Shown: piece after piece, positions 1,591 through 46,962 of the stretch | Layout: every line of letters begins with the position of its first letter | Numbering within the stretch: the first letter of the stretch is position 1 | NCBI GenBank assembly: GCA_045635585.1 | Contig: JAZTWA010000020.1 | Span: 2,426 to 66,425 of the forward strand | Direction: 5' to 3' | Length of the DNA stretch: 64,000 nucleotides | Source of the DNA: Candidatus Enterousia sp. | Lineage (GTDB): Bacteria; Pseudomonadota; Alphaproteobacteria; Rs-D84 | Notes under the pieces: model-generated | The model's database searches: none | The model's input: only the letters and a program-made list of their open reading frames with translations | What the model was told of the DNA's origin: nothing | Made by a program: the position numbers and the translations under genes

Positions 1591-1688
1591 ACACTTCCCC
1601 TCTTTTGTGTTTAGTGTAGAAAAAAACATTTACTAATACAAGCAGAAACGTGTATATACAATGCAAATTTTTTATTTGACGGGTTTTT
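1591..1688 (-). promoter_or_regulatory. Conserved promoter/5'UTR block of the giant-protein family (copy 1)
   Basis: On the minus strand: GTCAAA, 16 nt, TATATA (plus-strand tatata at 1653-1658, tttgac at 1675-1680), then a ~60-nt leader ending in an SD. The same block with the same spacing occurs at 20208-20305 and 30389-30500. Confidence 0.5.
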
Positions 1689-5292: not shown

Positions 5293-5377
5293 ACGAGGCT
5301 ATATTATATATATTTTTCATTTCAATGCAAGATAAAAATTATTTTATTTTTGTCGGTCTTTGTGTAATGATACGCGT

Positions 5378-6656: not shown

Positions 6657-6688
6657 GAAAAAAACACCCCGATGCGGGGTGTTTTTTT
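6657..6688. terminator. Bidirectional intrinsic terminator between the convergent helicase and giant gene
   Basis: aaaaaaACACCCCGatgCGGGGTGTtttttttt: a perfect 9-bp stem flanked by an A-run and a T-run. Confidence 0.8.
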
Positions 6689-9600
6689 TACCATGATTGA
6701 TATCCAGGATTACATATATTGTCACATTTGTTTGTTTCTGGATTCCAACGTCTTGTGCCTGTTTCATCGTCCAAGTCTTCGCATATTGATATACATTCGT
6801 TATTTTCCAACCAATACTTTTCACCATGGAACATACATGCACCAATTTCGCATTCACGGACATACGAACTGACTAATTGTTCGCCAGATGCGTCATATTT
6901 ATTGTTGCATTCGCCACATTGTTCGTAGTTCATGGAATCCGTTAAATTAGGGTCATTGGTGTAACCAGGGAAACATTCTGTTGCAATACAATCGCCCCAT
7001 TTACCAAGACTTTCATCCCATTCGCGTTCACCGATACCATGTGGCAACGCGCACGTTGTATCGTCCTGTTTACAAATGTTTCTTTCAACGTGATAACCGC
7101 CAACACATTCTTGGATAATACATACACCAAAAGCACCTTTTTTATGATCCCATGTTTGTGTTGCAACAATTGCATTTGAAGCTTCACAAGAACGAACATC
7201 TTCTGCACACTGTTGGCCTTCTGGATGATATCCCGATACACATGATTCAATTACGCAATTGCCGCCTGGTTTATACGATAATGCGTTTTCACGATCACAT
7301 TCTTGACAGATACCATTAACCTTTTCCCAACCGTCACGACATTTAAATTCATAACATGTGTTTCCAACAACTTCACATTCATGATCTGTCATTGTTTTAT
7401 ATTTACACTGTTGTAAATATGGCGCTTTGGTATCAACAGGTGTTATTATGCCATTTTCCACATTACGTATTTCGCATTTTGCATAGCAGCCTGTGATGCT
7501 AGATGCACCTTCGTCTGAATAAGGATACGCGCCACCTGTACGTTCTGTACAAGTATATGGTTTTCCGCCATCATATTTTGGATCGCAGACATAACCCGCA
7601 GGACATGGAACACATTTGTCACCGTCTATGACAAATCCTTTGCCGCATGCAAATGCCGTACATTCTGAACATTTTTCAGTATATGCATTTGTCCCATAAT
7701 AACATGTCTGTGTTCCTTCACCGATTTTTACACCGTCTTCGATGACATCACATACGATGTTCGAGTCAAAACAATCAGATTTATCATTTTTACCCCCAAC
7801 AGAATCACCCTTGCCGGGACATGTATAACACATGTTACCATCAACGTATGCACCTTGGTCAGCAACAACTTCTGTTGCTGTTGGATAACAATCAGTTGCA
7901 GAGTCACATGTTTCGCCTTCTTGGCCGTAATAGTCATTGTATGTACATGTTGTTGGGTTACAAGACATAAACTTTTCAACATCCGAGCAATTTTTTGGTG
8001 TTATTACATCCAGTTGTTTACCAGACTTTTCAACAACCGCATAACAATTATCTTTTGTCTTGGTGCCTTTAATAGAATTTGGGTATTCTGATGGACAAGA
8101 TTCAATACCTTCGGATTTGCCACTATTCTTTTCAAATATTGTTTGACTGCCGTTACAGAATGATTTTGGTGGACATTCTGTACATCTATCCCCTGTTCCG
8201 GAATAATATGTTCCAGCAGTACATTCGATAGCATTTGATACCCATTGTGCTGTAAATGTAACATCTGTGTCTTCTGACAACGTATAGCGTGCACCGCCGT
8301 TATATGCGCGACCATCACTTGCGACCCAACCACTAAATGTATAGTACTTTCGTTCGCATATGTCGCCAGATTCAATTGTGATTGTAGAACCAAACTGATG
8401 TTGTGAAACATTTTGTAATTCCATTCCGTAATCACATTTATAACCAACATTATAAGTCTTTGGTTCACATGTTGGATTTGATGTACCAGAATCTTTTGCT
8501 TCATAACCAGTATTTGCCGTTACAACATATGTTGTTTCTGGGTATGTAGTACCATTATATGCGACTTGCTGAACTTCTACAGTTGCACAACCGTTAATTG
8601 CTTTATTTGGCGCAGTGTATCTGCAATCTGTGTTTGTTGCATATGGCGACACAGAAGAATATGTACCACCATCTGGATTTGCACCAGATAATTCTGAGCA
8701 CGCATGTCTATCTAGTTCATCTTTTGCAGAATAGTACCCTTTTTCCACAAACTTACAATTATTACCAACTTTGTAGTATCCAGAATTACACGATAATACA
8801 TCTGTTACAACACAATTTAGATCATACTTTGTAACACTTAGATAGCACTTTTTCGTTCCTGTACCATTTAAAATTGAAGTATCTGTTTTATAACAATCGC
8901 GACTTTGACTTGCTGTTTCAGATTCTGTGAGTCCCCCATCTGGACATTGGGTCTTTTTACCTGCAATGCAGTAATGATTTTTACCACAGTTTTCAAGTGT
9001 CGTATCAGAAACTTTGATATAACCACCTTCAATAACTTTACAAGATGTTTGTCCTGTCTGTGGTTGATATTCATTTGCTTTGCTGCATGCTGTTGCACCT
9101 TGGGAATCTGTTGTAGAATACGTATATATTTTGACCGTATCTGGACATTTAAACCCGGCATCGCAAGGTTGGCATAATTCCGCACTGGCTGGTAAATATT
9201 CCCCAACTGCACATTCAATTGATTTAATCTGGTATGTTGCAACAAAAGTTTTGTTGAAATCAAATACATAATCAATTTCTGCGCCCTTTTGATATTCTGC
9301 GTTATTTGTCATGTCTGTCCAGCCAGCAAATTCATAACCTTGTAATTTACAGGTTCCAGCATTTTCTGGTAATGTCAATACACTATCATATTTAACAGAA
9401 TCCGCATCTGGGGCATTACCATTTACATCGTCACCACAAGAATAAGTTACATTGTATGTATTTGCCTCCCATTTGGCTGATAGGGTTGCACCGTTTTCGC
9501 ACATAGCGCTATCAGTATATTCAACGACGTTACCATTCCATAACCAACCATTGAATGTATATCCTGTTTTTGACGGTATTGGTAATTCAATCGGGTCGCT

Positions 9601-12600
9601 TTCAACATTACATGAAATTGGTGTATAATTTTCTATTTTACCACCATTGGGTATCAAATCGATTGGTTTATTGCCTTCTAAAACCCATACTGCTTCGAAT
9701 TCGATATTAGATGCTTGGTTCCAAACAATTGTTTGTCCGGCTTTGAAATTTTGACTAATGCCTTTCCAACCATCAAACACATAGCCAGCTTTTGTACAAT
9801 CTTGATTGTTTGCAAGTGTAAATTCTTCGTCATATGTTGCCGTATCGGATGCTGGTGCAGTACCTGTTGCACCCGTACCACAAGAATATGTAACAATATA
9901 TTCATTTGGGGTCCATTGGGCATACAAATCTATGACAGTGGCATCTGTTGATGTTAAATTTTTAACATTTGCGTTATTTGCATACGTTTCGCCTTGGCCA
10001 TCAATAGATGTGTTCCAACTATTGAATGAATAACCCGTTTTTTCGAATGTATTTGTATTCAACACTTGTTCTGTGTCATATGTAAATGACTGAGATGCCG
10101 TTTCATTACCAACAGTGTTCGAATAATACTTGATTGTATATGAAATTGGCTTCCATTGGGCATAAAGCATATATTTTTGCTCTGCTTCTGTTGTCCAATT
10201 ATCGACAACCGCTTCATCACTATAGTCGATTCCGCTGCCATCGCTTTCTGTGTTCCACCCTGTAAATCTGTAGCCAACCAATGTATACGCATTTTTTGGC
10301 AAATTCGACTTTTGATTATAATAATATTTATTTGGGTTCATTTGTTCGCCAGATACATTCGCAGTCGCGTTTTCAGGTTTGTTTTTGTTAAACGATACCG
10401 TCCAAACATTAGGTGTACAAGCGGCATTTACTGTTCCAGAGTTAATTGCTTCATATCCCAGTTTTGGTGTCACATCATACACAAGTCTTGACCAAGTATT
10501 GCCCTTAAAGTTTTGTGCTTGCGGAACCGCAGTTTCACAATTTTCTTTTTCAAACACCGTTGAATCAAACCAACAATCTGTATTTGCGCTACGTGGCAAT
10601 TCAGAACGATAGTTTCCGCTGCCCAAATAATGTGCCCCGGGTAACGTGCTACAATTTGTCTGGGTCAAATCCCCATCAGCAGAGAAATATCCGTTATCAA
10701 CTGGTATACATTCACTTGTATTTGTATTTCTATAATACCCTGCATTACAAGTCTTGACCGTTACAACACAATCCGTATCGTAAACAGCACTATCGCCTTT
10801 ACCACTGGTGTAATTACATGACTTGGTTGCTGTTCCATTTTCAATCAATGCAGGTATATCCGACAGATAACATTGGGTGATAGATGTCGATTGTTGCCCT
10901 TTTGTGTAACCAGAACGAGGACATTCGTTTTTAACACCGGCATCACACCACGCATTATATGGACATTCAATTATTTTTGTATGTGTAGAATTTGTGTAAT
11001 GACCCGTTGGTACTTCTTTACAATCCGTTGCGTTTGTTTCGTCTTGATATGTTGCGCCGCCACAGAAAGTACGTCCGTGTTCTTGTCCGTCGTATTCATA
11101 TTTTATGGATTCAGCAGGACATTTATAACCCTTTGGACAATCCGTACATGTTACAGAATCTTTTGGCAGATATTGTCTTGCAGGACATATTATCATTTTT
11201 TGTTTCCAATTAACTGTAAATGTTTGATCAGATAAATAGTCCCATACAATAGATTCACCAGAATCAAAAATGTTACCAATTTCATCAGTCCACCCGTCGG
11301 CTTCATATCCTTGTCTTTGACAAGTACTGATTGTATCAGCAAGTTCAAACGTACTGTTATACGAAATGCGTGTGGTAACAATTGGTGGTGTACCTGTTAC
11401 ATCGTTGGTATTGCCACAGGAATAAGTAATTTCATATTTATTTGGCACCCATTTTGCATATAAAGTTACATCTTCTAAATATGAGTTCGTACGCAAATTA
11501 TCGGTCAAAATCATACCCGTTTCGTTAATCATTTCAACCAATGTTCCACCAACCCCAGTCCAATATCCATCGAATTGGTAGCCATCACGACTTGGGACGT
11601 CAACATTAGTATATTCGCCACCCAATGTATGCCAGTTACCACTTGCGTCACTGACTTGGATTTCTGTTTCATATATAATTTGCAACGCACCTTCATTCAA
11701 AGTGCCATCACCATTATCCAATTTGATAGAATATATTTTTGGTGTCCACTGGGCTTCAAACGTTAATCCAGTGGTACATGTTCCCTGTTCTACTTTGTCA
11801 ACAATTCCGCCGGCACTGTTCAACCAACCTTTAAATTCGTATCCTGCTTTGACGATATCAGGTAACATAAACGTTGGTGTTATAACATTACAAGATTTTA
11901 CATAGTCAGCGGATATTATATTTCCACCTTTTGTATCATATGTAATTGTTTGTGCATTACCCGCAATCCAAGCAGCATACAAAGTAATATTATCTGTCTG
12001 TGCATATTTCCGCATAGACACACCGGTATTACTATAATATTGAACCTGATTTTCATCAAACCACCCGTTGAACTTGTATCCCGACCATGTTGGTACAGAT
12101 TCTAATTTTGGCATATCGTTATCGTATTTTACAGTAACATTTGCAGGATTTTGACCATCCGCACCATTTAAATCAAATGATATTGTATATTCAATCGGTA
12201 AACATGCAGATAATGTTACCTGTTTGCCGCCTTGTTGTGTTCCATCAGCACTATATCCTGTGTCACATACACATGACGCAGATGCCGCTTTATCCAATGT
12301 TGTAGAATGACTTGGACATGCTGTACACGAAGTTGTTTGCCCCCCTAAACTAAATGAGTCTTTTGGGCAACTAGAACAAGATGCATTTGTAGTATAATTA
12401 CCAATTACAATGTGTCCAGATTTTGCCAAAACTTCGTAAACAAAGGACTCCCAACCCGCTTGGGTATATGCAATCGGACTTACTGTGACACTGTTACACC
12501 CAGACAATTCAATTGAATCTTTTAATGTATATCTACAGTTAATTGCCGCGTTGCGTGGTGACACAGAAGAATATTCGCCACCCAAAATTGATGGTGAAGG

Positions 12601-15600
12601 TGTCAAATCTGCGCATTTATTTGCCGTTGACACATCACCATATGTAACGTAATGTTCTTCTTTATATTCGTCTTCGGCCACAGATACACATTGGGCTTTT
12701 GCAGTCTTGACATATGTACCACCCGCGCATAGGGCCACACATCCATTTTCAAAACTTGTTGCGTTACCATTTCTATAACCTTCTGGACATTGAACGCGTT
12801 CAATTGAATCCGCCGCAGACCAATAGCCCGTACCAACGGTTATACATGATTGAACATCCGCGTCCGCTTGATAATACGCAGCGTCACAATGTGTTACTTT
12901 TTGATTCACACAACCAGATGTATATTCTGCGCTATTACCGTCACCACTGGAATAATAACATTCTTGGGTTCCGCCACCATTTTTTGTTGTCCAAGTTGTT
13001 TGTTTGCGACATTGTGTTTTTTGTGTTGCACCTTCTATGCCGGTTGTACCGCCATTTGGACACGTATATGCGACACCATCGATACAGTATTTTCCCATTG
13101 GGCAAATTTCACATGTTTGATTATCTTTTTTATACTGATTTGCCTCACATGATGAACACTTTGTTTTGCCTTTTTCCATCGAAACTTCGTTTTGACCACT
13201 GCATTCAAATATACCCTGGGCCGCACCTGTGTATGTGTATGTTGTTTGGTTTGGACAATAAAATCCTGCTTCACACGTCGTGCATGTTTCAGAATTTTTT
13301 GGCAAATAATTTCCTGCACGACAGTTGAATGATTTTGGATTCCAACGTGCAGTTAACATTTTAGATTCTGTACATGTACCGCCGTATATATATGTGTATG
13401 CCATGCCGGATGCATCATACCAACCAACAAAGTTGTATCCAACACGAGTTGGGGTCGGTAATTCAATGTCTTCTGTTGTTTCTTGTGTGCAGAAAAATTG
13501 ATTTTCCGATAACGTTACATCTTCGCCAGGATTTAACTGTATAACAAATTGTCCGTCCTTGCCCCACAAAGCTGTAAATGTAACATTGATTGTATGATTC
13601 CATTCAAATGTTTGTATATCATCTGGCTTATATAATTTTACACCATCTGACCAACCCAAGAAATCATATCCATCATGCTTGCATGTGTTTTCTGGCAACG
13701 TAAATGTCTGGCCATATGTAATATTTTGTGTGGCAGGCACAACACTTGATGTATCGGCATCTGCGCCACAATTAAACGTTGCAGAATATGTTACCATACT
13801 GCATTCTTCAGTGGTTGTGGCTGTATTTCCATCAACCGTTCCACCCACAGTATAACCAATTGTACATTCACATGTAGAATCAGTGTTTCCTTTGGTTGTT
13901 GAACTGTTTGATGGACATGCAGAACATGTATTATCTGATAAATAATATCCCGCTGCACATGTTTTTAATGTACATGAATTTACGACCGCAGTTTTGCCTT
14001 CATCATACCACTGTGGGTTAATCCATTCATAAACAGATTCTGCATCAGGACATGCAAGGCATTGGGCATCGCCATTATTTGCGGTGTATGTGCCATTTGA
14101 ACACAATTGACATGTTGCACCTGCAACACTATAAGAACCCGCAGGACATGCAGCACACACGTTTTCTTGGTTTGGAACATATGTTGATGCGCCAAGTGAT
14201 GTTCCGGCCGCACAATTGTGTGCTTTATAGTAATAGAACGGTATTACATATTTTGAACCTTGTGTCACAGCTGTATCTTCGACCATGGTTTGATTTACAA
14301 CAATTGATTGGAATTGAATCAATTCAGTTGCATTGGAATCAGAAATATTCAATCCCAAAACGGCATTATTTAATGTTTGGTTCGGATCTAAAATAATTGT
14401 GATTGCACTTATAATTCTATTGTCGTTGGAAGGGTGGTCTAACTCCCATGCCACAGTACTATCATTTGTTACTTCTGCGGACGACCAAGAAATATACTTC
14501 CCAGTCTCTTGACCTTGAATTTCATACACACGCCCATTTGGGGCTAATAGAGTTACTTCAACACCCGCAATCTTGATTGGTGTATTGGACGATGTGGTTA
14601 AAACCAAATATTTATTATTTTTATAATCAAAAGTTTCTTTGGTTATATATTGACCAGCAGGTCTGTTGTAAACACATGCTGTTTCCAGTGTTCCATGAAT
14701 CAGAGTCGTACCTTCAAAGGAAACATTGGCGTTTTCACCACCATTAGGTAATGCAATCTTTGGGCACATATATAATTTTGACGTCTGACCATATTTTACA
14801 TATTCGTCCTGTGTCCAATATGTCTGATCTGTTTGATTAATCTGCATAATATCTTCTTTTTCACCGAATGGAACCAATATTTCGTACCCTGGGGAAACAC
14901 TCACTGCACAATCAGTGATGTTGACTGCATTTGTTGCCGAACGATAGAAATCTGGGCATTTTTCGCGACAGCCTTCGATATTATAATTGGTTTCACCAAT
15001 CCCTGGACAATACCACCCCTGTGGGCAATCTTGATGTTGTTGACCATCAAAATATTTTCCAGATTCACATGCCACAGGTGCACCAATATATTTTGCCGTT
15101 AATGTCAAATTTGCAGCTGTTTTGTAAATCAACGTTTGGTTTGCATCCGCATATTTTTCATTTTCGTTAATATACCAACCCATAAATTCATAATTTTCAT
15201 TTTGACATGTATTGGCCGCGGTTGTAAATTCGGAATTATATGTAACGGTCTGGGTTTCAATTGTTCCAGTGCCTTCACCACACGAATAAGACACAGTATA
15301 TGTTGCCGGTTCGCAAGATGCGGTTAGTTCCGTTTCATTTTTGTTCGATGTAATGAAGAATGATGTACTTCCATTGTTTATATATCCAGGATTGCAGATA
15401 AACTTGCACTGGAATTGATTTGCACCTAAATCTGTCGGTCTGGAGATACGATTTGTGTATACATTTTCGCCAGACACACATTGTGCAGCCGTCCAAACGA
15501 CATACAGTGTTACATTATCACCATTTGGCGATAAATCCTTGCCATCTGTACCCGCATCATAGCATGCACCCGTACCATCAGCATTTGTGCACCATTTTGT

Positions 15601-20207: not shown

Positions 20208-20305
20208 ACACTTCCCCTCTTTGGTGTTTAGTGTAGAAAAATTTCATATGTATGTCTAGTAAAAACGTGTATATACAATGCAAATTTTTTATTTGACGGG
20301 TTTTT
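20208..20305 (-). promoter_or_regulatory. Conserved promoter/5'UTR block of the giant-protein family (copy 2)
   Basis: Plus-strand tatata at 20270-20275 and tttgac at 20292-20297. The spacing (16 nt) and the distance to the ATG (63 nt) are the same as in copy 1, and the sequence is close to identical to 1591-1688. Confidence 0.5.
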
Positions 20306-20341
20306 GAAATGTTAAAAATTGAATTAATTCAACCTGCTTAT

Positions 20342-20370
20342 AAAAAGACCACCGAACCGGGGTCTTTTTA
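20342..20370 (-). terminator. Intrinsic terminator after the 3337-aa gene
   Basis: On the minus strand: GACCCCGG-tt-CGGTGGTC (imperfect stem) followed by TTTTTAT, just 3' of the stop at 20375. Confidence 0.55.
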
Positions 20371-20374
20371 TTAG

Positions 20375-23300
20375 TTACATCCAGTCATCAACAACCGAAT
20401 ATTCTTTGTTGTTATATTTTACCCTAAGTGTTTCTTCTTCGATGAACAGATGATTTGCCAATGTCGATTCCGCGGCGCCGGCCCCAATCTGTACCACCAA
20501 ATATGGAGCAACAGCTTCAATCGTTGCAGATGGTGTACTCTGTGGCGATGTACGAACAACGCCTTGTAACTGCTGGCTTGCAGGACTTGGGTTGTCTGTA
20601 AAGCCCCAGCGGAATATTGTACCAACAACACTTGAACTTGTAGTATCAAATGTCAATGTATACTTTTTACCTACTTCTACTGGATAAACCACAGAATAAC
20701 TATCACTTGATTCGACCCATGCGTTACTTGCGTTAATCCATGCAGAAATACGTTCTGGATCTGTCATAAATGCCTTACGGTTTGTTTCTGACATGTTACC
20801 ATATAACGTCAATCCACCAACATTTGCATGGAACGCAGGTGCCGTTCGTTTGCCACTGCGCAGGAAGATTGTTGAGCCACCCGCGTGCAGTTTACGTCCG
20901 CAATCGTCGGCTTCGTTCGCCCCATAACCATAACCAATTGTAGTTAAACCGGTTGTACATGCGTGACGTTTGGAAGTTTCTGTTTGGGCAACGTCGCCGC
21001 CAGTGCCCCAGAAACCCGCACCAACGTTTATACATTTTCCACCCGCGGTTTCAACATACGAACCCGCCGGACATGATACTACACACGATTTGATGCCTGC
21101 ATGCTGACTATATTCGTTGCCGCTGTTACCGTATCCATCTTCGGTATCACATGCCGTACATGCGGATGCGCCCGCATCAGAATATGTATTCGATGCACAT
21201 ACAGTGATGCCACCTGTTTTATCGGCATATATCTTGGTACCACCCGCACAATATCCACCAGCAACACAGTCTGTTAAGCCCGCACCAGCCGTTTCAACAT
21301 ATTTGCCCGCAGTTGTTGATAAATAACATGCGTTTACAGATGTTGCAGATGTGCCACCATCAGAATTTGGATATGGGTTTACACATGAAGTTTGGCCCAA
21401 CGTGGCGTTGTATGTACCAGAACTGCACAATGGCATCGCATCCAAACCAGAACAGTAATGATCCTTTGGACATGCCGCAGCATCACTGTACAACATCGCG
21501 CGTTTTGGATTATTAACGATATCATCACACCATGTTGCACTTAAACGTTCTGTGAAGTAGTACCCCGGATTTAATGTATCATAGAACAAATCACCACCGA
21601 TATCATACTTGCCGTTGCTGCTGTTATATGTTGTGCCATCAACCAAGAACTGACCATATTTATTGGTAAATTCGTATGTTACCGCACATTCTGTTATCTT
21701 GGTTAATCCGGTTAAATCGGACTTGTTTTCAACAAAAACAAGTGTTGGATTGTGATACTTTTCAGGATACGTTACACGTTTATGTGATTCTGCATCTGGA
21801 CATTTTTCATTACCACCAACATTATCCCAATACAGAGTGCCACCTGGGCAATAATATGTACCAGAACATGTTGTTTGAACTTCGTCTGCTTTAGTCTGGA
21901 TATAATGTCCAGCAACAACTTTTGCATAACAATCCGTATCTTGGGTTGCCCCAGATGCACTGTGTGAATACAAACCACCACCTAATTTGCTGCATGCGGT
22001 TTGTACAGTTGAACCCGCCGGACAGTAATTACCCGCAACACATGTTGAACATGTCGATGTTTGTGGATAATTTAATGTATGTTTGCCCAAATATGTACCG
22101 CCCGCACATTCTGTTGTGGACGTATCAGTCGATTTACCAAGGTATGCGCCGCTGATTTCATCAGTATAACAATCTTCGGCTTCGTCTGATTTTGCTGGAC
22201 TGTTTTTATACAATCCGCCACCCAATGTTGAACATGCCGTACGCCCACCCACAGAACCATAGTGAACATCAATACCACCAGTACAATAACCGTTTGCAGC
22301 ACAATCTGATTCTGTTTGATCTCCCACGGTCTGGATATACTTTTTGGACGTTGTTGTGCCATAACACGCCGTATCCGTTTTTGCGCCAGCAAGTGATTTT
22401 GTATAGAACGAACCCAATGTTGAACAAGATGTTTCAGCAGATGAACCCGCCACACAATAATTACCCGCCGTACAGGTATCGCATGTTGATGTATCACCGT
22501 AATGCACGCTGTGATTACCTTTGAATGTTCCAGCCGCACATTGTGTTGAGGTCGCATCATTTGGCTTGGCAATGTATGCGCCACTGATTGTGTTGGTATA
22601 GCATGCAGATGCACCACCGGTGTTGCCCACCACAGAGTTTGGATAGCCGCTTGGACATGCAGTACATGTTGTGCCGGCATCATAGAAGCCCGCTTGTGCA
22701 CTTACAGCTTTTACGGTCTTGGTACATGATTCTGCATTGGTTTCACAGCCAGATTTTACAGTACCGTCGCCTGTACCCGCTGAATTTGCATATGCTGTAT
22801 AATCACAGGCAGCAACAGAACATGCATTCCAGTCCGTTACAGCTGAACAATTTGTTGGTATCGCACCATCTAGCTGACTGCCGGTCCATGGGCGCTGTTT
22901 CGTGTTACTGAAACATGCGGTTACACCACCAGTGTTGCCCACCACAGAGTTTGGATAGCCGCTTGGACATGCGTCACAGGTTTGACCATTTACATAGTTG
23001 TTTGCCTTGGCCGTTAATGCCGTTGTTACGGTTGGGTCGTTCCAGCTGGTACTGTCTTTGGCGGTTTTGGTTAATTTACCCGCACTGCAGTTGCCCAATG
23101 GTGTACCACCGTACGATACATCGGTCATCGCCGTACATTGTGTTACATCGGTAAGCCCATCTGGCCCGTCGTAATACCAACCATCCCCGGCCGCTGGACA
23201 TGATGAACATGTGGATGTGTCACCCAATACAACTGTTGTTGTGCCTTGGTATGTTCCGGAATCACAATCGATGGATTCGCCGTTCAGAACAACCATGGTT

Positions 23301-26300
23301 GGTGTAGAGACACCCACTTTTGTATAATTTTCTTCATAAAATACAGGTATCCAGTCACCATACATACCACCCAATACGTATATTCCAAGGCTATCAAATA
23401 TGGGGGTAAGTGTATTAAACATTATTGAACCAATTTCATAACTGCCACCCAATTCAAATACGAATTCACCGTCCGCAGATGCAGTTGGTTTTTGCCCCGC
23501 AGGCATACTAAAATTACCATCGGTGGCACCAGCACAGTTAGCGCCAACAGAACAATTTTTGCCGGCCAATATATTTGTCCCCGTACCATCGTGTGATTCA
23601 AATGCCTGGATTTCATTCAGCATAAAATTCAACGTAGTGCCGCTTGGAATGCCAACGATTTTGATTTTGGACGCCGGGATTGTGTTTTGTTCGATGTATT
23701 GGCCCGATATAGTGGTTGTACAATCACGTGCGGCATCGTGCGCAGATGCGGTTGTGCCATTTGATGTATAGCCTGTCATACAATAGTCCACAGCTGATAT
23801 TGAACCATAATTGACATCTTGTGCCGCTGATGTGAACCAATTTCCCGCCGGTGATGTGCATTGTTCGCCCGCAGATACAACGCGCTGACCCGCAGAACAT
23901 GTGGTTTTACATGATGATTCGCCCGCGTGTGCCGTTGCAGTATCACCAGAATTACCGTATTCTGATGGGCATGCTGTGCATGATGTCGCGCCAGTCACAG
24001 AATACTGATTGTCACCACAAACAGAACATGAAGATGTCGAACCATAGTTCACAGTATGGTCGCCCTTGAATGTGCCGGACGCACAGCTGGTTGTGCTGCT
24101 TGCATTTGCAGTGGCAATGTATGCACCACTGATTGTGTTGGTATAGCATGCAGATGCACCACCGGTGTTGTCCGCCGCAGAGTTTGGATAAAAACCACCC
24201 GCCAAGCCAGAACACGCTGAACATCGTGTACCATTTACATAGTTATTCGATTTGGCCTTTAATGCCGTTGATACGGTTGGGTCCTTCCAGTGGGTGCTGT
24301 CCAATGCGGTTGCGGACAATGCGCCCGCGCTGCAGCTGGACAATGGTGTGCCACTGGTCGATGTTGTGGTTACCATTTTACATTCCGCCCAAGACCCCAG
24401 ACCAGTTGCAGTGTCATACTTCCAACCGTCGACAGGTGCAGGACATGAATCACATGTTTCCAATGTGTTGGCAAAATATTGCCGATCGCTTTCTTTGTAT
24501 GTGCCCGCACCGCAGGCTTTTGGGGCGGTTACATACAGTGGGAAACGGAATGTCGCACCCAACACCGGCATATTATCGCCCGCTTCCCCGGTTTGTTCGC
24601 CCGTTCTGATTAAGCTACGCGCAGTTTCAGCAGCATCTTCAACCATTACACGTATACGAGCCTCTCTGGAATCTTTTTCTGTTACCGGAATGATTTCGAT
24701 ATGTGACAGTGCAGGATCTTTAATATCCGTATTATTACGGATCGCACCATACAAACCACCGGAATCAATGTCGATTCTTATTCTATCACCAGATTCAAGC
24801 CAGACCGCATCTATAACATCACCATCAAGCAATGACATTGTCGGAACCACATGGCCATCGGCATCCAGAATAGTCATAAATCTGTCAACCATTTCTGCGG
24901 GTAACTGCGTGGTGCTGATTTCAAAGCTGCCCGCGTCCAATGCATCCGCCAATTCCAAGAAATAGAAGCGTATTTCGGCAATTTCTATAAAGGAGGAAGT
25001 ATCAGCAAATACTTCGATACGCCCTGGTATAGGATATCTTACGGGGCGCGATTGATATATGCCGCCGGATGGTGTAATTGGTGCAATACACGCGTGTTGC
25101 GATGAATCATGCGGCATGTTGGGGGTTGGTGCAAAATTACCAATCAAGCCATTAGTCATCGTTTTATCACCTGCAACATTATTAATTGTTGAACAGAAGT
25201 TCATTGGTGATACAGACTGATAATATACAGAATGTTCGTCCGTCCATGCAGATGCAACCAAATTGTTGCCGATTGTGTCCAAATTAACCGGTGCGGCCAT
25301 TGGTGTTAAAACCGCGCCACCCGCATGAACGTTGACATAACAATCGCGTATAGAATCTGAGCCAAGTTCACTGAACGGGTAATTGCCTTCTGTTTCTTTG
25401 TCACAAGAAAATCCCCCATTAGCAGAACCATAATTGACCTTTTCTGATGGACAGTATTCACCCGTTGGACATTCTGTTTCGTCCTTGTCTTCTTTGTCGG
25501 CAATATATTTGCCCGGTGTTGTGTTCAAATAACATGCAGATACACCACCGGTGTTGCCCGCCGCAGAGTTTGAATACGGCGCAGGACATACATCACATGA
25601 CGATGTGCCAGATACATAATTACCCGCCGTTGCCGTTACAGATGCGATTGTTTTTGTACAACTTGACGCGGTACATGTTTCATCGGTTGCACCGTTATAG
25701 TCGCGATATGTACATGACCCAGGTGTACATGCATTATATGTTGCATTTGAACAGCGGTCAGGTATGTCAGGATTCAACTGGGCACCGGTTTTGGTTTTTG
25801 ATACATAGCAATATTTTTCATCGGATGTACCAACATCAGAATTTGGATATGCCGTCGGACATGATGAACATGTTAATGTTGATGTCAATGCCAAAGCTGT
25901 ATTGCCCGCACGATATGTGTTTGCGGCACATGAACGTGGAATATCAGACACAACAACCGTATTGATAATTATCTGATCTATATAGCTGTCGCTGGTTTCG
26001 ATATCTGTTGGTTGCATCACAGGTATCCAATTGTTTGGTTCGTCCGCCGTTGCAACAAATATTTGAACATTTTTATATGTTTCACGATATCCATAGTCAA
26101 CAGAGAATACGAATGAACCAATTTCTTGGTTTGCCCCCATGTCAAACAGGATGCTGCCCTGTTGTCCCTGTTCAAAACTTATATAAGTGTCACTGACGTC
26201 GAAATAGCCATCTGTGGCACCATAACCGACTTCATATGCTTCTTCCCCATTTATATCAGGAATACCGAATGCCAGCAACCCATCCAATAAATTGGTGCCG

Positions 26301-29300
26301 GTTGCATTATTTGATGTAAATGCCTGAATTTCATTCAGATAGATAGATGGATCCATGTCACTTTCACTGCCACTTCCGTATAAATAACCATCGGATGCAA
26401 AGCGTACATAACGGGCGGTTATTGTGTTTTTGTTCACCGCCTGGCCCGCAGGAACTGTTGTTTTGCAATCGGTTGCCGCGTCGTGATCCGCCGCAGTGGT
26501 GCCAGATGCCGTATAACCATCCATACAATAGTTAACCGCCGATACATTGCCGTAACTTACTTCTTGGGATTCGCCATAGAACCAATTTCCCGCCGGTGAT
26601 GAACATGTGGCACCCGGTGTTGTGACACGTTGACCCGCAGAACATGTGGTTTTACATGAATAAGCGTATGCATGGTAAAGGGAGGTGTTACCAGAATTGA
26701 CATATCCAGATGGACATGTTTCACATGCAGCCGCCCCACTATCAGAATATTGATTGATGCCACAAACAATACATGATTCCTGTGTTTCAACCTGACCATA
26801 GCCTACCAGATGTTCAGCTTTGTACGATCCGGCCACACAAGGCGCTGTGTTGGTAGAATATTTGGTTCTAAGATATTTCCCCCCAGGAACCAAGATTTTA
26901 CATTGGGATGCGGCGGTTTTACGTTCGGACAAATCATCCACATAGCCTGTAGGGCAATTTTCTTGCACGCCGCCCGAACAATATGTTGCGCCAGTACATT
27001 TTGTTTGGCTTGTACATGCCTCGTTGTCACTGTTACAGCCTGTTACATAGTATCCGGAATTTGTATTTTTACATGCTGTTTGACCAGTCGCATCTTGATA
27101 TTTGCCCGCCGGACATGGGGTTTCCTGCGAATTACCTTCGCCGGCCGCATAATGCCCCGCAGATGCAGGATTACATGTTGGGTGTGGACCACCGGCATAA
27201 TATCTATATTCAGGTAAATAGGTACCAGGTTGACAAAACATAAGTTCATATGCAACCAATGGAAATGAAAATCCAACACTGGCAAATTCGCGAGTACCCC
27301 AATAATCCGTTTCTGCCGAGTCGTAGGCCATATCAGAATAATTATATTCACCATTGGTTCCATTCTCAATAGCATTGAACGGAACATATGAGGCAACTAT
27401 GCTGGAGTTTAAACTATCATTCACATAGATTGACATAATAGCTTGAGTATGTGATATTGCCATATATTGGGATGGACGTAAAACAATACGTGTGTATTCA
27501 AGCCCCGATGGCAAATCCAGATCTATAAAATAATTAAAATCATCCGTACTCAGAGAAGTGGTTACATCGCCATCAAATAAATCCCAGTAGTATTCCGCAA
27601 ATCCACTGATGCTATACATTGTATCAGGATCCAGCTTTGTATCACCAACATAGACTTCGATTTCAGAAATTTCGGCCCATTCATAAAATTCGATACCAAT
27701 TGCATAAATCGAAGCGTTTTCAATGATATTATCGGTGTAATGTTCAACACCCGACATATCCAAGTAACAAGTGTTTAACCCGGCATGGAGACCCATATTA
27801 TTACCATCGAATGAATATATCTGCGTGTCGTAATCGCTAATGGTTGGACAAACCGTGTAATTGGATATCTGGCCCAACTTTACGGTATGCGCGTCTAAAT
27901 AATATGGCATATTTGGCACCGCTGTCAATGGAATACATGTGTCTCCTGGAATGAATACCCCGTATCCAGGATCACAGTCAATCTGACAATCCATGTCAGA
28001 TGTGGCGCCATCTGGTGCATAATAGCCGGTGGGACACTGAACACCAACATATTTCCAATGGGCGTATAATGTGAATGTCGTCGATGTTGGGTAAAGCGTC
28101 AAAAGCGCAGTATCAGATGTTAATCTACCCACAGCGGTAATCACTTGCGTTCCACCAGTTTCCGCAGTGTAATATCCCATAAATTCATGTAAATTACGGC
28201 TAGGTAATGAAAAATTATAGGGTTTGGCTGACGCCGTAATCAAATTACCCGCCGCGCTAGATGTAGAACTGATTGAAACATTGGTGTTATACTTACGATA
28301 CAATGTTGTTGTACCACCGGTTCCATCGTTTTTATCCAATGTAATGGTGGCCTGTATCGGATTCCATTTGGCATACAGGGTTATATTAGATGTGCTTACC
28401 GTGTACAAATTATTTGTTGTTACACCATCGGCCTTGACATACTGGGTACCAGAACCGTTTTGTCCCGTATAATATCCACCGAATGTGTATCCTGTTTTTG
28501 TTGGTTTGGTGATAGTATCACCACTGTTGCCGCCAATACATGTTGTCAAGGCAGATGTTGTATAATAATAACATGTGCCCTTGGTATTATATTGATAATA
28601 GTATTCTTTTGTTCCCGCAGTTGTTGCGCCTTGGTTATTCAAGGTTACTTTGATTGTATTTGGTGTCCATTGTGCATATAATTTAACGGATGTTGGGGTG
28701 CCGTTACCACACGTACCGTTCCATGATGAAATCGACTGGCTCTTGCTGTATGATGTACCCTTGCCATTCGCCTGGGTGTTCCAGCCCGACAAAGTATATC
28801 CGGCGCGGGACAATCCAGATCCAGAATTCAATGTTAATGCCGTACCATATGTCAGGGTTTGAGATGATGGCGTTGTTCCAGTACCACCATTCAAATCATA
28901 TGAAATTGTTGTTTTGCATACTTCCCACTTGGCTTTCAAACTATAATCACCCATACTTTGTGTCAGCGAGAAATTCGATGTTGTAAACCCGTTTGCATCA
29001 ATAATCAGGGGCGCCGTTCCAGTTACAACATTTAATTCAAACCCCGCAAAGCGCGAACCACTTTTTGTGGCAATCGCAGACCCATACGTATCAATCCCGG
29101 CACCACCAACATTTGACCAATCTTCCCAGGACCCACCAGCATCCCACGAAACCTGAAGTTTTTCGCCGTAAATGACGCGCATTCTGAAATCCGCATCTGC
29201 CAAGGTACCACCATTTGAATTTAACGTGATATTAACCGTATAACCGGTACAAGAACCACCATTTTCAACAGGTTTTACATACTGAACGCCGCCTTCGCCA

Positions 29301-30388
29301 CCAGTGTTGGAAGTAAAACCGCTGTTACAAACACAATTGATGCCTTGCAATGTAGAGTTTTTCGGACAGGTATAACAATCGTATTTCTTTTCTCCACTAT
29401 GATAAACATATGATTTGCCGGCTGGACATGCAGAGCACACCATGCCTTTATCCGCAGATGTAGCGCCGTATTCAACAGTATGTTCTTCTATTTTCGGTTT
29501 ATCAGATGGACATATTTCAGGGTCACCGCCCGCGCTGGCGATATAATAACCAGATTCAACCACTGCCTTACATTGACTACTTGATGTCCAGCCTGTGCCA
29601 GTTGCATCCCGATAATACGACGGACATGTCATTCGCTGGCCACCAGAACAGTAATAATAACCAGAACACTGGGTTTGTCCCGTACAGCCCGTACCAGATG
29701 TTCCGCAACCAGTCGCATAATATCCAGATGTTACAGGCGTACACGATGTCGCAGTACTGCCGTTCGTGCCCTGATACTGATAATTGGTACATGACACACA
29801 TTTTTGTGATGCACCAGTTCCCGACAGATATTTACCCTTGCCCGCCTTCAATGTTGTTGTAACAGCGGAAGTAGAGCCATACCATGATGCGTTTTTTACT
29901 GATACATATTGTTCATAACCATTAACATTTGGATTATTTGGATTCCATTGAGCGCTCTCAATCATAGTTGCATAAGGGAGGATAGGTTGCGTTAAAGTAC
30001 CGCTATAACAGCCGGCGGCACTGGCCGACAGGGTTTGGGTACATTGGGTTATGTTCGTCATACCGGTTTGGGTACCCATGGTCCAACCCGATGTTACGGT
30101 TGGACATTTCAGAGATTCACTGGTCGCTTTCATTCTCTTATTTGGACAGATATATCCCGCAGGACATGCCGTACGCGCGGAATTCGGGTTGGTTGACGCA
30201 TTATATCCGGGACAGATATATCCCACCTCGCACATCTTACAAGTAGTGCCCGATAGGTAATAACCCGCGTTACACTGCGTGTACACCTTGGTCGCACTGG
30301 TCGAGCAGGTATAACCCGCCGCAAATGCGTTATTTAATGTGAATAATGAAACCAATAAAATCGCGAAAATACGCAAAAATTTGAACAT
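20375..30388 (-). CDS. Giant (3337-aa) secreted Cys-rich mosaic protein with four EIEVY/EIQAF beta-sandwich modules
   Basis: I prefer the start at ATG 30388 (MFKFLRIFAILLVSLFTLNNAFA signal peptide, GGGAAAG SD) over the upstream Met at 30451. CxxC/GYYC modules run throughout. Listeria-Bacteroides repeats lie at aa ~400-800. Cys-poor modules lie at nt ~27242-27739, 25952-26425, 24527-25054 and 23267-23689. The Cys-free C-terminal ~180 aa map to 20375-20920. Confidence 0.85.
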   Translation of the reverse strand: MFKFLRIFAILLVSLFTLNNAFAAGYTCSTSATKVYTQCNAGYYLSGTTCKMCEVGYICPGYNASTNPNSARTACPAGYICPNKRMKATSESLKCPTVTSGWTMGTQTGMTNITQCTQTLSASAAGCYSGTLTQPILPYATMIESAQWNPNNPNVNGYEQYVSVKNASWYGSTSAVTTTLKAGKGKYLSGTGASQKCVSCTNYQYQGTNGSTATSCTPVTSGYYATGCGTSGTGCTGQTQCSGYYYCSGGQRMTCPSYYRDATGTGWTSSSQCKAVVESGYYIASAGGDPEICPSDKPKIEEHTVEYGATSADKGMVCSACPAGKSYVYHSGEKKYDCYTCPKNSTLQGINCVCNSGFTSNTGGEGGVQYVKPVENGGSCTGYTVNITLNSNGGTLADADFRMRVIYGEKLQVSWDAGGSWEDWSNVGGAGIDTYGSAIATKSGSRFAGFELNVVTGTAPLIIDANGFTTSNFSLTQSMGDYSLKAKWEVCKTTISYDLNGGTGTTPSSQTLTYGTALTLNSGSGLSRAGYTLSGWNTQANGKGTSYSKSQSISSWNGTCGNGTPTSVKLYAQWTPNTIKVTLNNQGATTAGTKEYYYQYNTKGTCYYYTTSALTTCIGGNSGDTITKPTKTGYTFGGYYTGQNGSGTQYVKADGVTTNNLYTVSTSNITLYAKWNPIQATITLDKNDGTGGTTTLYRKYNTNVSISSTSSAAGNLITASAKPYNFSLPSRNLHEFMGYYTAETGGTQVITAVGRLTSDTALLTLYPTSTTFTLYAHWKYVGVQCPTGYYAPDGATSDMDCQIDCDPGYGVFIPGDTCIPLTAVPNMPYYLDAHTVKLGQISNYTVCPTISDYDTQIYSFDGNNMGLHAGLNTCYLDMSGVEHYTDNIIENASIYAIGIEFYEWAEISEIEVYVGDTKLDPDTMYSISGFAEYYWDLFDGDVTTSLSTDDFNYFIDLDLPSGLEYTRIVLRPSQYMAISHTQAIMSIYVNDSLNSSIVASYVPFNAIENGTNGEYNYSDMAYDSAETDYWGTREFASVGFSFPLVAYELMFCQPGTYLPEYRYYAGGPHPTCNPASAGHYAAGEGNSQETPCPAGKYQDATGQTACKNTNSGYYVTGCNSDNEACTSQTKCTGATYCSGGVQENCPTGYVDDLSERKTAASQCKILVPGGKYLRTKYSTNTAPCVAGSYKAEHLVGYGQVETQESCIVCGINQYSDSGAAACETCPSGYVNSGNTSLYHAYAYSCKTTCSAGQRVTTPGATCSSPAGNWFYGESQEVSYGNVSAVNYCMDGYTASGTTAADHDAATDCKTTVPAGQAVNKNTITARYVRFASDGYLYGSGSESDMDPSIYLNEIQAFTSNNATGTNLLDGLLAFGIPDINGEEAYEVGYGATDGYFDVSDTYISFEQGQQGSILFDMGANQEIGSFVFSVDYGYRETYKNVQIFVATADEPNNWIPVMQPTDIETSDSYIDQIIINTVVVSDIPRSCAANTYRAGNTALALTSTLTCSSCPTAYPNSDVGTSDEKYCYVSKTKTGAQLNPDIPDRCSNATYNACTPGSCTYRDYNGATDETCTASSCTKTIASVTATAGNYVSGTSSCDVCPAPYSNSAAGNTGGVSACYLNTTPGKYIADKEDKDETECPTGEYCPSEKVNYGSANGGFSCDKETEGNYPFSELGSDSIRDCYVNVHAGGAVLTPMAAPVNLDTIGNNLVASAWTDEHSVYYQSVSPMNFCSTINNVAGDKTMTNGLIGNFAPTPNMPHDSSQHACIAPITPSGGIYQSRPVRYPIPGRIEVFADTSSFIEIAEIRFYFLELADALDAGSFEISTTQLPAEMVDRFMTILDADGHVVPTMSLLDGDVIDAVWLESGDRIRIDIDSGGLYGAIRNNTDIKDPALSHIEIIPVTEKDSREARIRVMVEDAAETARSLIRTGEQTGEAGDNMPVLGATFRFPLYVTAPKACGAGTYKESDRQYFANTLETCDSCPAPVDGWKYDTATGLGSWAECKMVTTTSTSGTPLSSCSAGALSATALDSTHWKDPTVSTALKAKSNNYVNGTRCSACSGLAGGFYPNSAADNTGGASACYTNTISGAYIATANASSTTSCASGTFKGDHTVNYGSTSSCSVCGDNQYSVTGATSCTACPSEYGNSGDTATAHAGESSCKTTCSAGQRVVSAGEQCTSPAGNWFTSAAQDVNYGSISAVDYCMTGYTSNGTTASAHDAARDCTTTISGQYIEQNTIPASKIKIVGIPSGTTLNFMLNEIQAFESHDGTGTNILAGKNCSVGANCAGATDGNFSMPAGQKPTASADGEFVFELGGSYEIGSIMFNTLTPIFDSLGIYVLGGMYGDWIPVFYEENYTKVGVSTPTMVVLNGESIDCDSGTYQGTTTVVLGDTSTCSSCPAAGDGWYYDGPDGLTDVTQCTAMTDVSYGGTPLGNCSAGKLTKTAKDSTSWNDPTVTTALTAKANNYVNGQTCDACPSGYPNSVVGNTGGVTACFSNTKQRPWTGSQLDGAIPTNCSAVTDWNACSVAACDYTAYANSAGTGDGTVKSGCETNAESCTKTVKAVSAQAGFYDAGTTCTACPSGYPNSVVGNTGGASACYTNTISGAYIAKPNDATSTQCAAGTFKGNHSVHYGDTSTCDTCTAGNYCVAGSSAETSCSTLGSFYTKSLAGAKTDTACYGTTTSKKYIQTVGDQTESDCAANGYCTGGIDVHYGSVGGRTACSTLGGGLYKNSPAKSDEAEDCYTDEISGAYLGKSTDTSTTECAGGTYLGKHTLNYPQTSTCSTCVAGNYCPAGSTVQTACSKLGGGLYSHSASGATQDTDCYAKVVAGHYIQTKADEVQTTCSGTYYCPGGTLYWDNVGGNEKCPDAESHKRVTYPEKYHNPTLVFVENKSDLTGLTKITECAVTYEFTNKYGQFLVDGTTYNSSNGKYDIGGDLFYDTLNPGYYFTERLSATWCDDIVNNPKRAMLYSDAAACPKDHYCSGLDAMPLCSSGTYNATLGQTSCVNPYPNSDGGTSATSVNACYLSTTAGKYVETAGAGLTDCVAGGYCAGGTKIYADKTGGITVCASNTYSDAGASACTACDTEDGYGNSGNEYSQHAGIKSCVVSCPAGSYVETAGGKCINVGAGFWGTGGDVAQTETSKRHACTTGLTTIGYGYGANEADDCGRKLHAGGSTIFLRSGKRTAPAFHANVGGLTLYGNMSETNRKAFMTDPERISAWINASNAWVESSDSYSVVYPVEVGKKYTLTFDTTSSSVVGTIFRWGFTDNPSPASQQLQGVVRTSPQSTPSATIEAVAPYLVVQIGAGAAESTLANHLFIEEETLRVKYNNKEYSVVDDWM

Positions 30389-30500
30389 TCTTTCCCACTT
30401 TCGTTGTATATATACAGTTGTAGTGTAGAAAACTTTCCGTATATCGCGCAAGCAAAAAGATGTATATACAAGGCACTTTTTTTATTTGACAGGTTTTGGC
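30389..30500 (-). promoter_or_regulatory. Conserved promoter/5'UTR block of the giant-protein family (copy 3, more diverged)
   Basis: Plus-strand tatata at 30463-30468 and tttgac at 30485-30490 (16-nt spacing). It shares gtgtagaaaa and tgtatatacaa.gca.ttttttatttgac.ggtttt with copies 1 and 2. Confidence 0.45.
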
Positions 30501-30524: not shown

Positions 30525-30763
30525 TTGTCATTGCGATGGGAGTTTTAACGACCGACGCAATCCAGATAGTGTGTATGCTGATTACTGGATTGCCACGCTT
30601 CGCTCGCAATGACAAAGGTGTTACTGGATTGCTTCGCTGCGCTCGCAATGACAAGGAGTGTAAAGTGTTTTTCCTTTGTCATTGCGATGGGAGTGTAACG
30701 ACCGACGCAATCCAGATGGTGTGGATGATTACTGGATTGCTTCGCTGCGCTCGCAATGACAAG
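30525..30763. repeat. Cluster of palindromic intergenic repeat units (same family as 1712-1874)
   Basis: Two copies of ttgtcattgcgatgggag.gtaacgaccgacgcaatccagat, each followed by ~20 nt and then one or two inverse units actggattgc..cgct.cgctcgcaatgacaa. Confidence 0.85.
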
Positions 30764-30821
30764 GGGAGATAATTTTTATTATGGATTTATTTGTGTCGCA
30801 TATGGTATGCTGGGGCTTGAT

Positions 30822-37926: not shown

Positions 37927-37927
37927 A

Positions 37928-43672: not shown

Positions 43673-43720
43673 AAAAACACGAAATAAAACTATATAAGAC
43701 TTGAACAACAAGGAACAACT

Positions 43721-44062: not shown

Positions 44063-44064
44063 CC

Positions 44065-44087
44065 ATCCCCGCCAAACGGGGATTTTT
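44065..44087 (+). terminator. Intrinsic terminator
   Basis: ATCCCCG-ccaaa-CGGGGAT followed by TTTTT. Confidence 0.7.
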
Positions 44088-44134
44088 AAATTTTTATATT
44101 GGAAATTGATTTTATTACTGCTAGTATCCATTCT

Positions 44135-45310: not shown

Positions 45311-45311
45311 A

Positions 45312-46960: not shown

Positions 46961-46962
46961 TT

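Follow-up and report, generated by a model that had tools for sequence, protein, structure and literature searches.

A 64,000-nucleotide stretch of a Candidatus Enterousia sp. genome (the window; contig JAZTWA010000020.1 of GenBank assembly GCA_045635585.1, forward-strand positions 2,426 to 66,425) carries three genes, here termed A, B and C, whose products appear on balance to be giant surface adhesins of fibrillar form, held by C-terminal domains specific to the lineage. The protein bodies are mosaics of Flg_new repeats and Cys-rich arrays of the tumour necrosis factor receptor (TNFR)/ephrin-receptor type, joined in B by two discoidin-like domains of lectin type, and the C-terminal tail probably holds these giant proteins on the cell surface for attachment. 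The mosaic architecture had been proposed in an earlier sequence-only reading of the window and is real; the conserved terminal domains described below had been overlooked.

Organisation of the giant genes

Genes A, B and C all lie on the minus strand and occupy 25,124 nt or 39% of the window, in agreement with the sequence-only reading, which had described two very long adjacent coding regions and a third family member at 1-1590.

1..1590, minus strand: 5' part of gene C, 530 codons; the open frame leaves the window at its start
6688..18516, minus strand: main open reading frame (ORF) of gene A, 3942 aa, eight Flg_new blocks alternating with Cys-rich blocks
18456..20207, minus strand: N-terminal ORF of gene A, 583 aa, with signal peptide, Cys-rich modules and a 254-aa Cys-free insert (18654-19415)
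18570..18573, minus strand: G4 run at which the frame of gene A changes, a 1-nt frameshift; one added G gives a single 4506-aa ORF
20375..30388, minus strand: gene B, 3337 aa from ATG 30388, with signal peptide (30320-30388) and N-terminal AAGYTC... module

The predicted length of 3337 aa holds for B from ATG 30388, which was adopted in place of the TTG start of the ORF list (20375-30451, 3358 aa), and a database protein, P0105, is an exact 3252-aa substring of B. The ~4506 aa predicted for A are reached only when one G is added, a repair that had gone unreported: in the sequence as given, gene A consists of two ORFs of 583 and 3942 aa, in different frames and with a 61-nt overlap. In-silico repair at the G4 run yields 4507 codons with one terminal stop and a sensible junction (...SIAPNTGATSCETCDTG...), at which ...CPSCDATSIAPNTG is followed by ATSCETCDTG..., and the main frame is open and sensible from the G-run at 18570 onward. 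The sole database match of the 583-aa N-terminal ORF, and of the repaired N-terminus of A, is an identical 583-aa record; it lies on a contig of 87,856 bp from which the window itself apparently derives, and no independent copies of the products of A were found in other assemblies on record or in two metagenome scans. Leaders of all three proteins were judged by inspection to be of the Sec type, as had been predicted (MKKISRILGFLSTLFMVVFASQSAFA in A, a near-identical one in C and MFKFLRIFAILLVSLFTLNNAFA in B).

Repeat modules and domains of the protein bodies

The hundreds of Cys residues that had been assigned to a composite motif are present (213 in A, 147 in B), at a density of 6.5-6.6% in Cys-dense stretches versus 1.41% in the 31 other ORFs of the window; the commonest Cys-Cys spacing is CxxC, with 24 such motifs in A and 18 in B. 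The composite motif itself is rare, with C..G.[YF] occurring 21 times in A and 16 times in B and CP.G.YC three times in A and once in B, and the two strings quoted as examples, CAAGTYSNTFGTTSCPSCD and CPAGYYCPGG, were both found. Listeria-Bacteroides repeats had likewise been recognised and are recovered by both domain libraries: Flg_new (PF09479; cut-off 27 bits) reaches 308.5 bits in A over 13-18 stretches and 51.1 bits in B over 2 stretches, and List_Bact_rpt (TIGR02543, NCBIfam; cut-off 20.95 bits) reaches 125.6 and 42.8 bits, respectively. An iterated hidden Markov model (HMM) for Flg_new locates at least 17 repeats in A, grouped into eight blocks, and at least two in B, where Cys-rich arrays with inserts accompany a Flg_new region at 28373-28909.

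17812-18498, 15769-16209, 15097-15300 and 13366-13788, minus strand: Flg_new blocks 1-4 of A
11764-12189, 11212-11436, 9241-10404 and 8251-8454, minus strand: Flg_new blocks 5-8 of A

The eukaryote-like affinity claimed for the Cys-rich modules is borne out at the fold level, while the corresponding sequence match is marginal. Ephrin_rec_like (PF07699, formerly GCC2_GCC3; cut-off 23.1 bits) scores 24.1 bits in the main ORF of A, with one stretch above threshold and eight weak ones, and 14.0 bits in the N-terminal ORF of A; B and C gave no match, and the homologues P0003 and P0024 reach 23.6 and 24.7 bits. Because of this marginal match, a Cys-rich array of B was modelled.

26462..27235, minus strand: modelled Cys-rich array of B, residues 1073-1330, 20 Cys; TNFR/ephrin-receptor-like disulfide-ladder fold

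The AlphaFold model, built from an input alignment of 25 homologous fragments, has a mean predicted local distance difference test (pLDDT) score of 85.2, and in a Foldseek search against the PDB every match was eukaryotic, the top one being the Chlamydomonas mastigoneme protein MST1 (8wa2, E 7.4e-5, probability 1.00; also 8tx1), with ELAPOR1 (9vqm) at E 1.4e-3, 4-1BB, CD40, RANK and EphA2/A4 at E 0.02-0.09, and further matches to OX40, DcR3 and meckelin. The matched domains of MST1 are highly similar to the Cys-rich domain of ephrin receptors and form a disulfide ladder with ~11 Å spacing, which has been proposed as the source of robustness in this extracellular filament (PMC10602792). PF07699 is regarded as being of eukaryotic origin, and its rare bacterial instances have been read as horizontal gene transfer (HGT; PMC6993872). 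All 35 sequence homologues found with a 658-aa segment of B are bacterial, and a PDB sequence search with B gave no meaningful match. No common bacterial repeat family claiming the Cys-rich modules turned up in the Pfam and NCBIfam scans, the existence of one being an objection that the sequence-only reading had raised against itself. Judged from the model, the Cys-rich modules appear to be of eukaryote type at the fold level, for which homology and convergence are both possible. The EGF-like repeats reported at the C-terminus of A were not recovered: no Pfam family, EGF-like or other, matches its C-terminal 357 aa at E<=10, and the sole cEGF match (E 3.7) lies in the N-terminal ORF of A, not at the C-terminus.

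Among the beta-sandwich inserts that had been proposed, two in B appear to be discoidin-like (F5/8 type C, galactose-binding-like) domains.

25997..26494, minus strand: discoidin-like domain 1 of B, residues 1320-1485, HMM 4e-60
23321..23749, minus strand: discoidin-like domain 2 of B, residues 2235-2377, E 2.4e-54 to the domain-1 HMM

An HMM from the discoidin-like domain of B matches the proteins P0006, P0009 and P0010 at 1e-62 to 1e-68, and P0006 lies above the cut-offs of both PF00754 (42.4 vs 28.2 bits) and PF22633 (33.7 vs 27.8 bits); residues 1315-1512 of B, tested directly, remain sub-threshold (19.2 bits vs a cut-off of 27.8, E 0.0019). No Pfam match was found for the other inserts without Cys in the three proteins, and hhalign comparisons of these inserts with the discoidin profile and with each other were negative except for A versus C (residues 255-525 vs 290-530; probability 84%, E 7e-6). 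A beta-rich fold can be assigned at low confidence to one further insert, that in the tail of B.

Conserved C-terminal domains

Neither C-terminus had been found to carry a recognisable sorting signal. This stands as far as known anchor and export profiles are concerned, as Pfam and NCBIfam scans of A, B, isolated tails and relatives returned no autotransporter barrel, YadA anchor, LPXTG signal, type IX secretion system (T9SS) sorting domain, PEP-CTERM-type tag or RTX/type I secretion system (T1SS) element; both ends are nevertheless conserved, lineage-specific terminal domains, which close with ...YSVVDDWM in B and ...NPGYQSW in A.

20378..20905, minus strand: type-1 C-terminal domain of B, DCGRKL...LYGNM, a ~110-aa insert (20441-20767), then ...LRVKYNNKEYSVVDDWM-COOH; predicted three beta-hairpins
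6691..7425, minus strand: type-2 Cys-rich C-terminal domain of A, ending ...CNPGYQSW-COOH; no Pfam match

The type-1 domain spans ~63 aa ending in ...YSVYDDSM-COOH and follows the pattern DCGR...YLRS.KKT.PS...FYGNM...YSV[YHV][DN]D.. at the extreme C-terminus. A six-frame search of the window with an HMM of 152 homologous tails matches B only (domain i-E-value 1e-25, ending at the last residue), with no type-1 tail in A or in the in-window part of C. In a search of 1.84 billion representative proteins, a 63-position tail profile matched 588 clusters at E<=1e-3, of which 365 reach E<=1e-10. Among the top 150 matches the domain ends at most 15 residues from the protein end in 129, and of these 150 proteins 71 have at least 1000 aa and nine at least 3000 aa, the largest having 4949 aa. 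A further 96-211 aa follow the type-1 tail in 21 of the top 150 (e.g. P0072, P0080, P0116, P0135, P0137 and P0138), many of these extensions containing a Cys-bearing motif (..CWCK[IL]TSP....KWVY......C..KCG[YF]YCANNMKG....NITYRTNLY..), and by its sequence the extension appears to be a further undescribed terminal module. Passengers in tail-bearing genome loci range from 1.3% to 9% in Cys content, so the type-1 tail is a portable tag on diverse cargo.

No match to the type-1 domain was found in Pfam, NCBIfam or PDB sequences, including in scans of isolated tails and relatives. AlphaFold, supplied with 55 aligned tails, predicts three beta-hairpins with a conserved core at pLDDT 79-94 and a beta-rich insert of lower confidence; Foldseek returned no match to this model at E<=1e-3, and its weak matches to CBM6, CBM35 and CUB jelly-rolls (E>=3e-3) are probably due to the low-confidence insert. 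A membrane barrel of the trimeric-autotransporter kind was considered and rejected, the strands of the AlphaFold model being 5-8 residues long and charged, and the model leaves a soluble binding domain or a recognition tag as the live options.

Among the 35 homologues of B (620-1151 aa), near-invariant N-termini (MSKILRYLACLFMLIFAGNALA followed by AGYSCP.YKKYTSC...) and near-invariant C-termini (...DCGRVLNVNGEKIYLRSERKTTPSLNVSINGTTFYGNMGASGIGALKLNSGGTTYSVYDDSME) enclose Cys-rich middles of variable length, and B itself carries both ends; an N-terminal hydrophobic stretch is present in 73 of 90 family representatives of at least 600 aa. In populations resembling Ca. Enterousia intestinigallinarum, the family gene beside secA differs in length across samples (620-1271 aa), but its first ~35 and last ~70 residues are near-identical; it looks as if cassettes were being gained, lost or shuffled in a protein that is exposed.

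The type-2 tail of A (...ECEIGACMFHGEKYWLENNEC...CDNICNPGYQSW) follows the pattern ...ECEIA.CMY.GE.Y.LENNEC...DETG..W...C..C..G[YF]..W-COOH, found within the window in A only. It has 12 homologues at 46-55% identity among proteins of Alphaproteobacteria metagenome-assembled genomes (MAGs) or metagenomes, the named ones being 'Alphaproteobacteria bacterium' MAG proteins, and G[YF]xxW-COOH closes 11 of the 11 homologues with an intact end. The two conserved C-termini would thus far be the best candidates for an anchoring or export route.

Paralogy and upstream regions

Sequence comparison shows A, B and C to be paralogues, each with its own copy of a conserved promoter/ribosome-binding site (RBS) region, the promoter being putative, and of a Sec-type leader. 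Their upstream regions can be aligned over a ~48-nt conserved element, a TTTTCTACACTA box and an RBS rich in purines, the last of these stopping a few bases short of each ATG.

1641..1688, minus strand: conserved upstream element of C (putative promoter/5' untranslated region), repeat family D9, 51 nt upstream of the ATG
20258..20305, minus strand: conserved upstream element of A, from repeat search and upstream alignment
30451..30498, minus strand: conserved upstream element of B, 83% identical to the upstream copy of C

A 32-nt core of the element is identical at 1651-1682 (C) and 20268-20299 (A), with 0 such matches expected by chance; one sigma-70-like site was found upstream of A (20258-20230), a frequency no higher than chance. 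C is a paralogue of the N-terminal region of A, with a common signal peptide, Cys-rich motifs and a Cys-free insert, and over 113 nt spanning the start codon and leader the two genes are 94% identical (1512-1624 vs 20129-20241); past the leader the proteins have diverged, to 40% identity in the first 124 aa.

REP-like repeats (TTACTGGATTGC..CGCTCGCAATGACAAG, with an ATTGC...GCAAT inverted core) occur in 2-3 tandem copies upstream of C and B, at 1701-1853 and 30582-30780. A 102-nt stretch upstream of C (1701-1802) is 92% identical to one upstream of B (30665-30766), so the duplicated upstream regions extend well past the promoter element. Within gene B, internal DNA duplications at 21348-26659 have 60-84% identity to the reference copy and are spaced mostly at ~1.2-1.5 kb (families D1, D2 and D5) or 2.7 kb (D10), and B therefore grew via duplication of multi-module super-repeats. 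Recombinase-driven switching by way of the adjacent XerC was rejected: all three genes point the same way, inverted repeats of at least 40 nt are absent, and XerC, with 78% identity, is a conserved gene of housekeeping type.

Host lineage and genomic context

The giant genes are flanked by common bacterial housekeeping genes, those for a XerC-like recombinase, SIMPL, TrpRS, RNase P RNA, tRNAs, a RecD-like helicase, a flavoprotein and radical-SAM enzymes, and for PBP5, HolB, TatD, SmpB, RNase J, S4, LysRS, Tgt, QueA and Era. XerC, TrpRS, PBP5, HolB, TatD and SmpB are 74-96% identical to, and collinear with, their counterparts in two Enterousia loci (L056 and L058); for XerC, TrpRS and SmpB the range is 76-96%. 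On this sequence evidence the window is from an Rs-D84/Candidatus Enterousia-like gut alphaproteobacterium, which refines the alphaproteobacterium-like genome of the sequence-only reading. Enterousia belongs to the order Rs-D84, whose genomes are mostly <1 Mb and lack the tricarboxylic acid cycle, respiration and flagella; its members are predicted to be obligate symbionts or parasites that may draw metabolites from partner cells, and the giant proteins are not mentioned in that account (PMC12306168). If the genome is of the size usual in the lineage, A and B (23.5 kb) would take up ~2-3% of it. The GC content of the giant genes is modestly above that of the rest of the window.

Scanning GTDB species genomes with the conserved tail alignment of the relatives of B yielded 76 loci, most of them recorded as 'uncultured Alphaproteobacteria bacterium', 'Candidatus Enterousia' or 'uncultured Rickettsiales'. 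They stem from the guts of chickens, humans, mice, horses and ruminants, with several paralogues per genome. All 76 appear to fall in this lineage, the few that are labelled otherwise being syntenic with, or nearly identical to, lineage loci. The family records labelled Muribaculaceae or Bacteroides fragilis are L043 (OZ246409.1), L036, L067 and L053. Neighbouring genes of the three Muribaculaceae-labelled loci are 50-92% identical to, and syntenic with, those of Alphaproteobacteria MAG loci, and the B. fragilis contig, L053, a fragment of 3 kb, carries a family gene that shares 88% identity with one in the Pseudomonadota-labelled MAG locus L055; because of this synteny and near-identity, the labels look mis-assigned. 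In OZ246409.1, a 'chromosome' of 716,531 bp, two family genes (2416 and 686 aa) lie in tandem upstream of secA. Recurrent neighbours of the family genes are secA (28 loci), dnaK, dnaE, rsmH and pfk. One related locus contains an ExbD/TolR gene, which suggests that the envelope is diderm.

In L056 and L058, TrpRS adjoins a block of SmpB, TatD, HolB, PBP5 and a MiaB-like gene; in the part of the window compared, 4.6-47.4 kb, this block (42416-47433) is inverted and ~38 kb from TrpRS, with A, B and a radical-SAM cluster between, and the family gene beside XerC in L056 has an orientation opposite to that of gene C, so the giant genes lie at a rearrangement-prone site. The radical-SAM row (35783-39511, minus strand) comprises genes for a B12-binding radical-SAM methyltransferase-like protein (527 aa), a radical-SAM/SPASM maturase-like protein (396 aa) and an amidohydrolase/adenosine-deaminase-like protein (318 aa), and may be a peptide- or cofactor-maturation cluster in a genome that is probably very small. 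Directly downstream of A, a 429-aa ORF (5360-6649, plus strand) gives partial matches to superfamily 1 helicases of the RecD2/TraA type (RecD2 62.6 bits vs a cut-off of 500) and seems on this evidence to be a short or degenerate helicase gene.

Comparison with known systems

Like A, B and C, the giant repeat adhesins of bacteria that contain Flg_new have a Sec leader and are very large, with stalk-type repeats in tandem, discoidin-like domains among them and a terminal region that is conserved. Their stalks, however, are built of Ig-like domains, whereas TNFR/ephrin-receptor-type Cys-rich modules predominate here, in a probably diderm alphaproteobacterium of a lineage with genomes <1 Mb, with no LPXTG, autotransporter, T1SS/RTX or T9SS element detected. 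The eukaryotic Ephrin_rec_like/TNFR proteins (MST1, ELAPOR1, Eph receptors and TNF receptors) are the best and only structural matches and are extracellular disulfide-ladder rods; MST1 builds a hair-like surface filament (PMC10602792). In contrast to these, sequence similarity is here at the detection limit, no transmembrane (TM) or glycosylphosphatidylinositol (GPI) anchor, Ig/FN3 partner or hydroxyproline helix is present, and the modules are joined to bacterial Flg_new repeats behind a bacterial leader and promoter.

T9SS cargo domains and YadA-type anchors resemble the type-1 tail in being small, beta-rich C-terminal domains of ~60-80 aa on diverse, often giant Sec-dependent passengers within one lineage. 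The T9SS is a system of Bacteroidota. The type-1 tail differs in having no sequence or significant structural match, in its strands, which are too short and charged for a barrel, and in ending with an acidic ...DDSM rather than an aromatic beta-signal. From background knowledge, the variant surface proteins (VSPs) of Giardia and the Cys-rich surface antigens of ciliates offer a further likeness, as CxxC-bearing Cys-rich multigene families with conserved ends and variable middles in anaerobic gut organisms; the present proteins lack the C-terminal TM segment and CRGKA tail of Giardia VSPs, and Pfam scans gave no match to the VSP family (PF03302) at E<=10.

Proposed function and alternative explanations

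According to the adhesin reading preferred here, the Cys-rich modules would fold in the periplasm after Sec export into rigid, protease-resistant disulfide-ladder rods, and the conserved C-terminal domain would either be recognised by the route to the surface or itself provide that route, and would also retain the proteins at the cell surface. The extended fibres would display lectin-like and variable modules through which a metabolically dependent cell attaches to a partner cell or to host glycans, and the variable middles between conserved ends would reflect diversifying selection on an exposed protein; a protective, variable coat is a possible second role. An attachment role would suit an organism that is probably dependent on contact with other cells; the host-interaction adhesin role suggested by the sequence-only reading is likewise an inference. 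In a bolder form, which is tentative and somewhat unlikely, the ~63-aa three-hairpin tail would be the recognition/anchoring module of an undescribed surface-display route specific to genome-reduced gut Alphaproteobacteria (Rs-D84/Enterousia), with giant disulfide-ladder proteins of eukaryote-type fold as its cargo, forming mastigoneme-like hairs for attaching to, and living off, partner cells in animal and human guts.

Several observations weigh against the adhesin reading. The Foldseek TM-scores of the elongated Cys-rich model are low (0.15-0.39), as expected of flexible rods, so the match is local; lectin-like domains, whose binding role is putative, occur in B only; the tails are putative anchors by position and conservation, and the tail itself cannot form a membrane barrel, since its strands are short and charged. 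No linked secretion or partner gene was found in the window or in the 76 related loci, which display housekeeping synteny only, and an anaerobe of a lineage without respiratory chains (PMC12306168) would have to oxidise 360 Cys. Gene A, moreover, is frameshifted as given, and there is a fair though lesser chance that it is a recently inactivated pseudogene or phase-OFF variant from which only the 583-aa secreted N-terminal fragment is produced. The position of the frameshift at a G4 run is in keeping with this, as is the separate 583-aa product in the identical database record, albeit on a contig that is apparently the window's own source; yet 3942 codons (11.8 kb) stay open downstream with all repeat families kept, so the frameshift is either a base-calling or assembly error or a very recent inactivation, and G4 is short for a slippage-based contingency locus.

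The remaining alternatives concern the role of the intact proteins. That they form a protective coat instead of adhesins is unlikely; such an S-layer-like or glycocalyx-like shield would be a disulfide-rich fibre layer against gut proteases, bile, phage and IgA, with the variable middles serving evasion, not ligand specificity. The high Cys density and a disulfide-ladder fold linked to robustness in MST1 would fit a coat, as would the conserved ends and variable middles of the relatives and the several paralogues per genome, and Giardia VSPs are, again from background knowledge, a similar analogy in another gut anaerobe; but B and its relatives contain discoidin-like domains of lectin type, which point to the binding of ligands, Flg_new repeats typically belong to adhesin-like proteins of the surface, and the two roles are mutually compatible. 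Release as exoproteins (soluble lectins, agglutinins or toxin-like effectors), the C-terminus being a secretion signal, possibly cleaved, and not an anchor, is improbable: a conserved domain at the extreme C-terminus, like that of T9SS sorting domains or T1SS signals, and the failure of Pfam and NCBIfam scans to find a membrane-spanning or covalent anchor motif would agree with it, but the N-terminal Sec leader argues against a T1SS, these scans found no toxin or enzymatic domain in 7.8 kaa, no immunity-like gene is adjacent, and the C-terminus is conserved, not polymorphic. Least probable of all is molecular mimicry in the strict sense, with proteins acquired from a eukaryote by HGT engaging host TNF-family/ephrin ligands or protist surface receptors. 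Every structural match is eukaryotic, the lineage inhabits animal guts and PF07699 is regarded as eukaryotic in origin, with rare bacterial cases ascribed to HGT (PMC6993872); the mimicry that had been suggested nonetheless finds no support at the sequence level, where the PF07699 similarity is marginal (24.1 bits) and all homologues found are bacterial, and the simple disulfide-ladder fold could arise convergently, GC content is only modestly above that of the rest of the window, and the promoter and RBS are native in type.

Significance

Giant repeat adhesins are a known kind of protein. What is new here, as far as the libraries and literature searched show, is the dominant use of a eukaryote-type Cys-rich fold, two undescribed terminal domains, and how large the family is in a lineage whose genomes are very small. 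Rs-D84/Enterousia inhabit the guts of humans, mice, poultry, horses and ruminants and are predicted to depend on other cells (PMC12306168), and one genome of this lineage devotes ~23.5 kb to two proteins, of which B carries a C-terminal tag shared by at least 588 sequence clusters and absent from the domain libraries used. If this tag serves to sort or anchor proteins, it would mark out a surface-display route that is new and offer a simple sequence handle for listing the whole surface repertoire of the lineage; if the Cys-rich modules are homologous to the eukaryotic ones, an extracellular domain of eukaryote type would here have been expanded in a bacterium to an unusually large extent.

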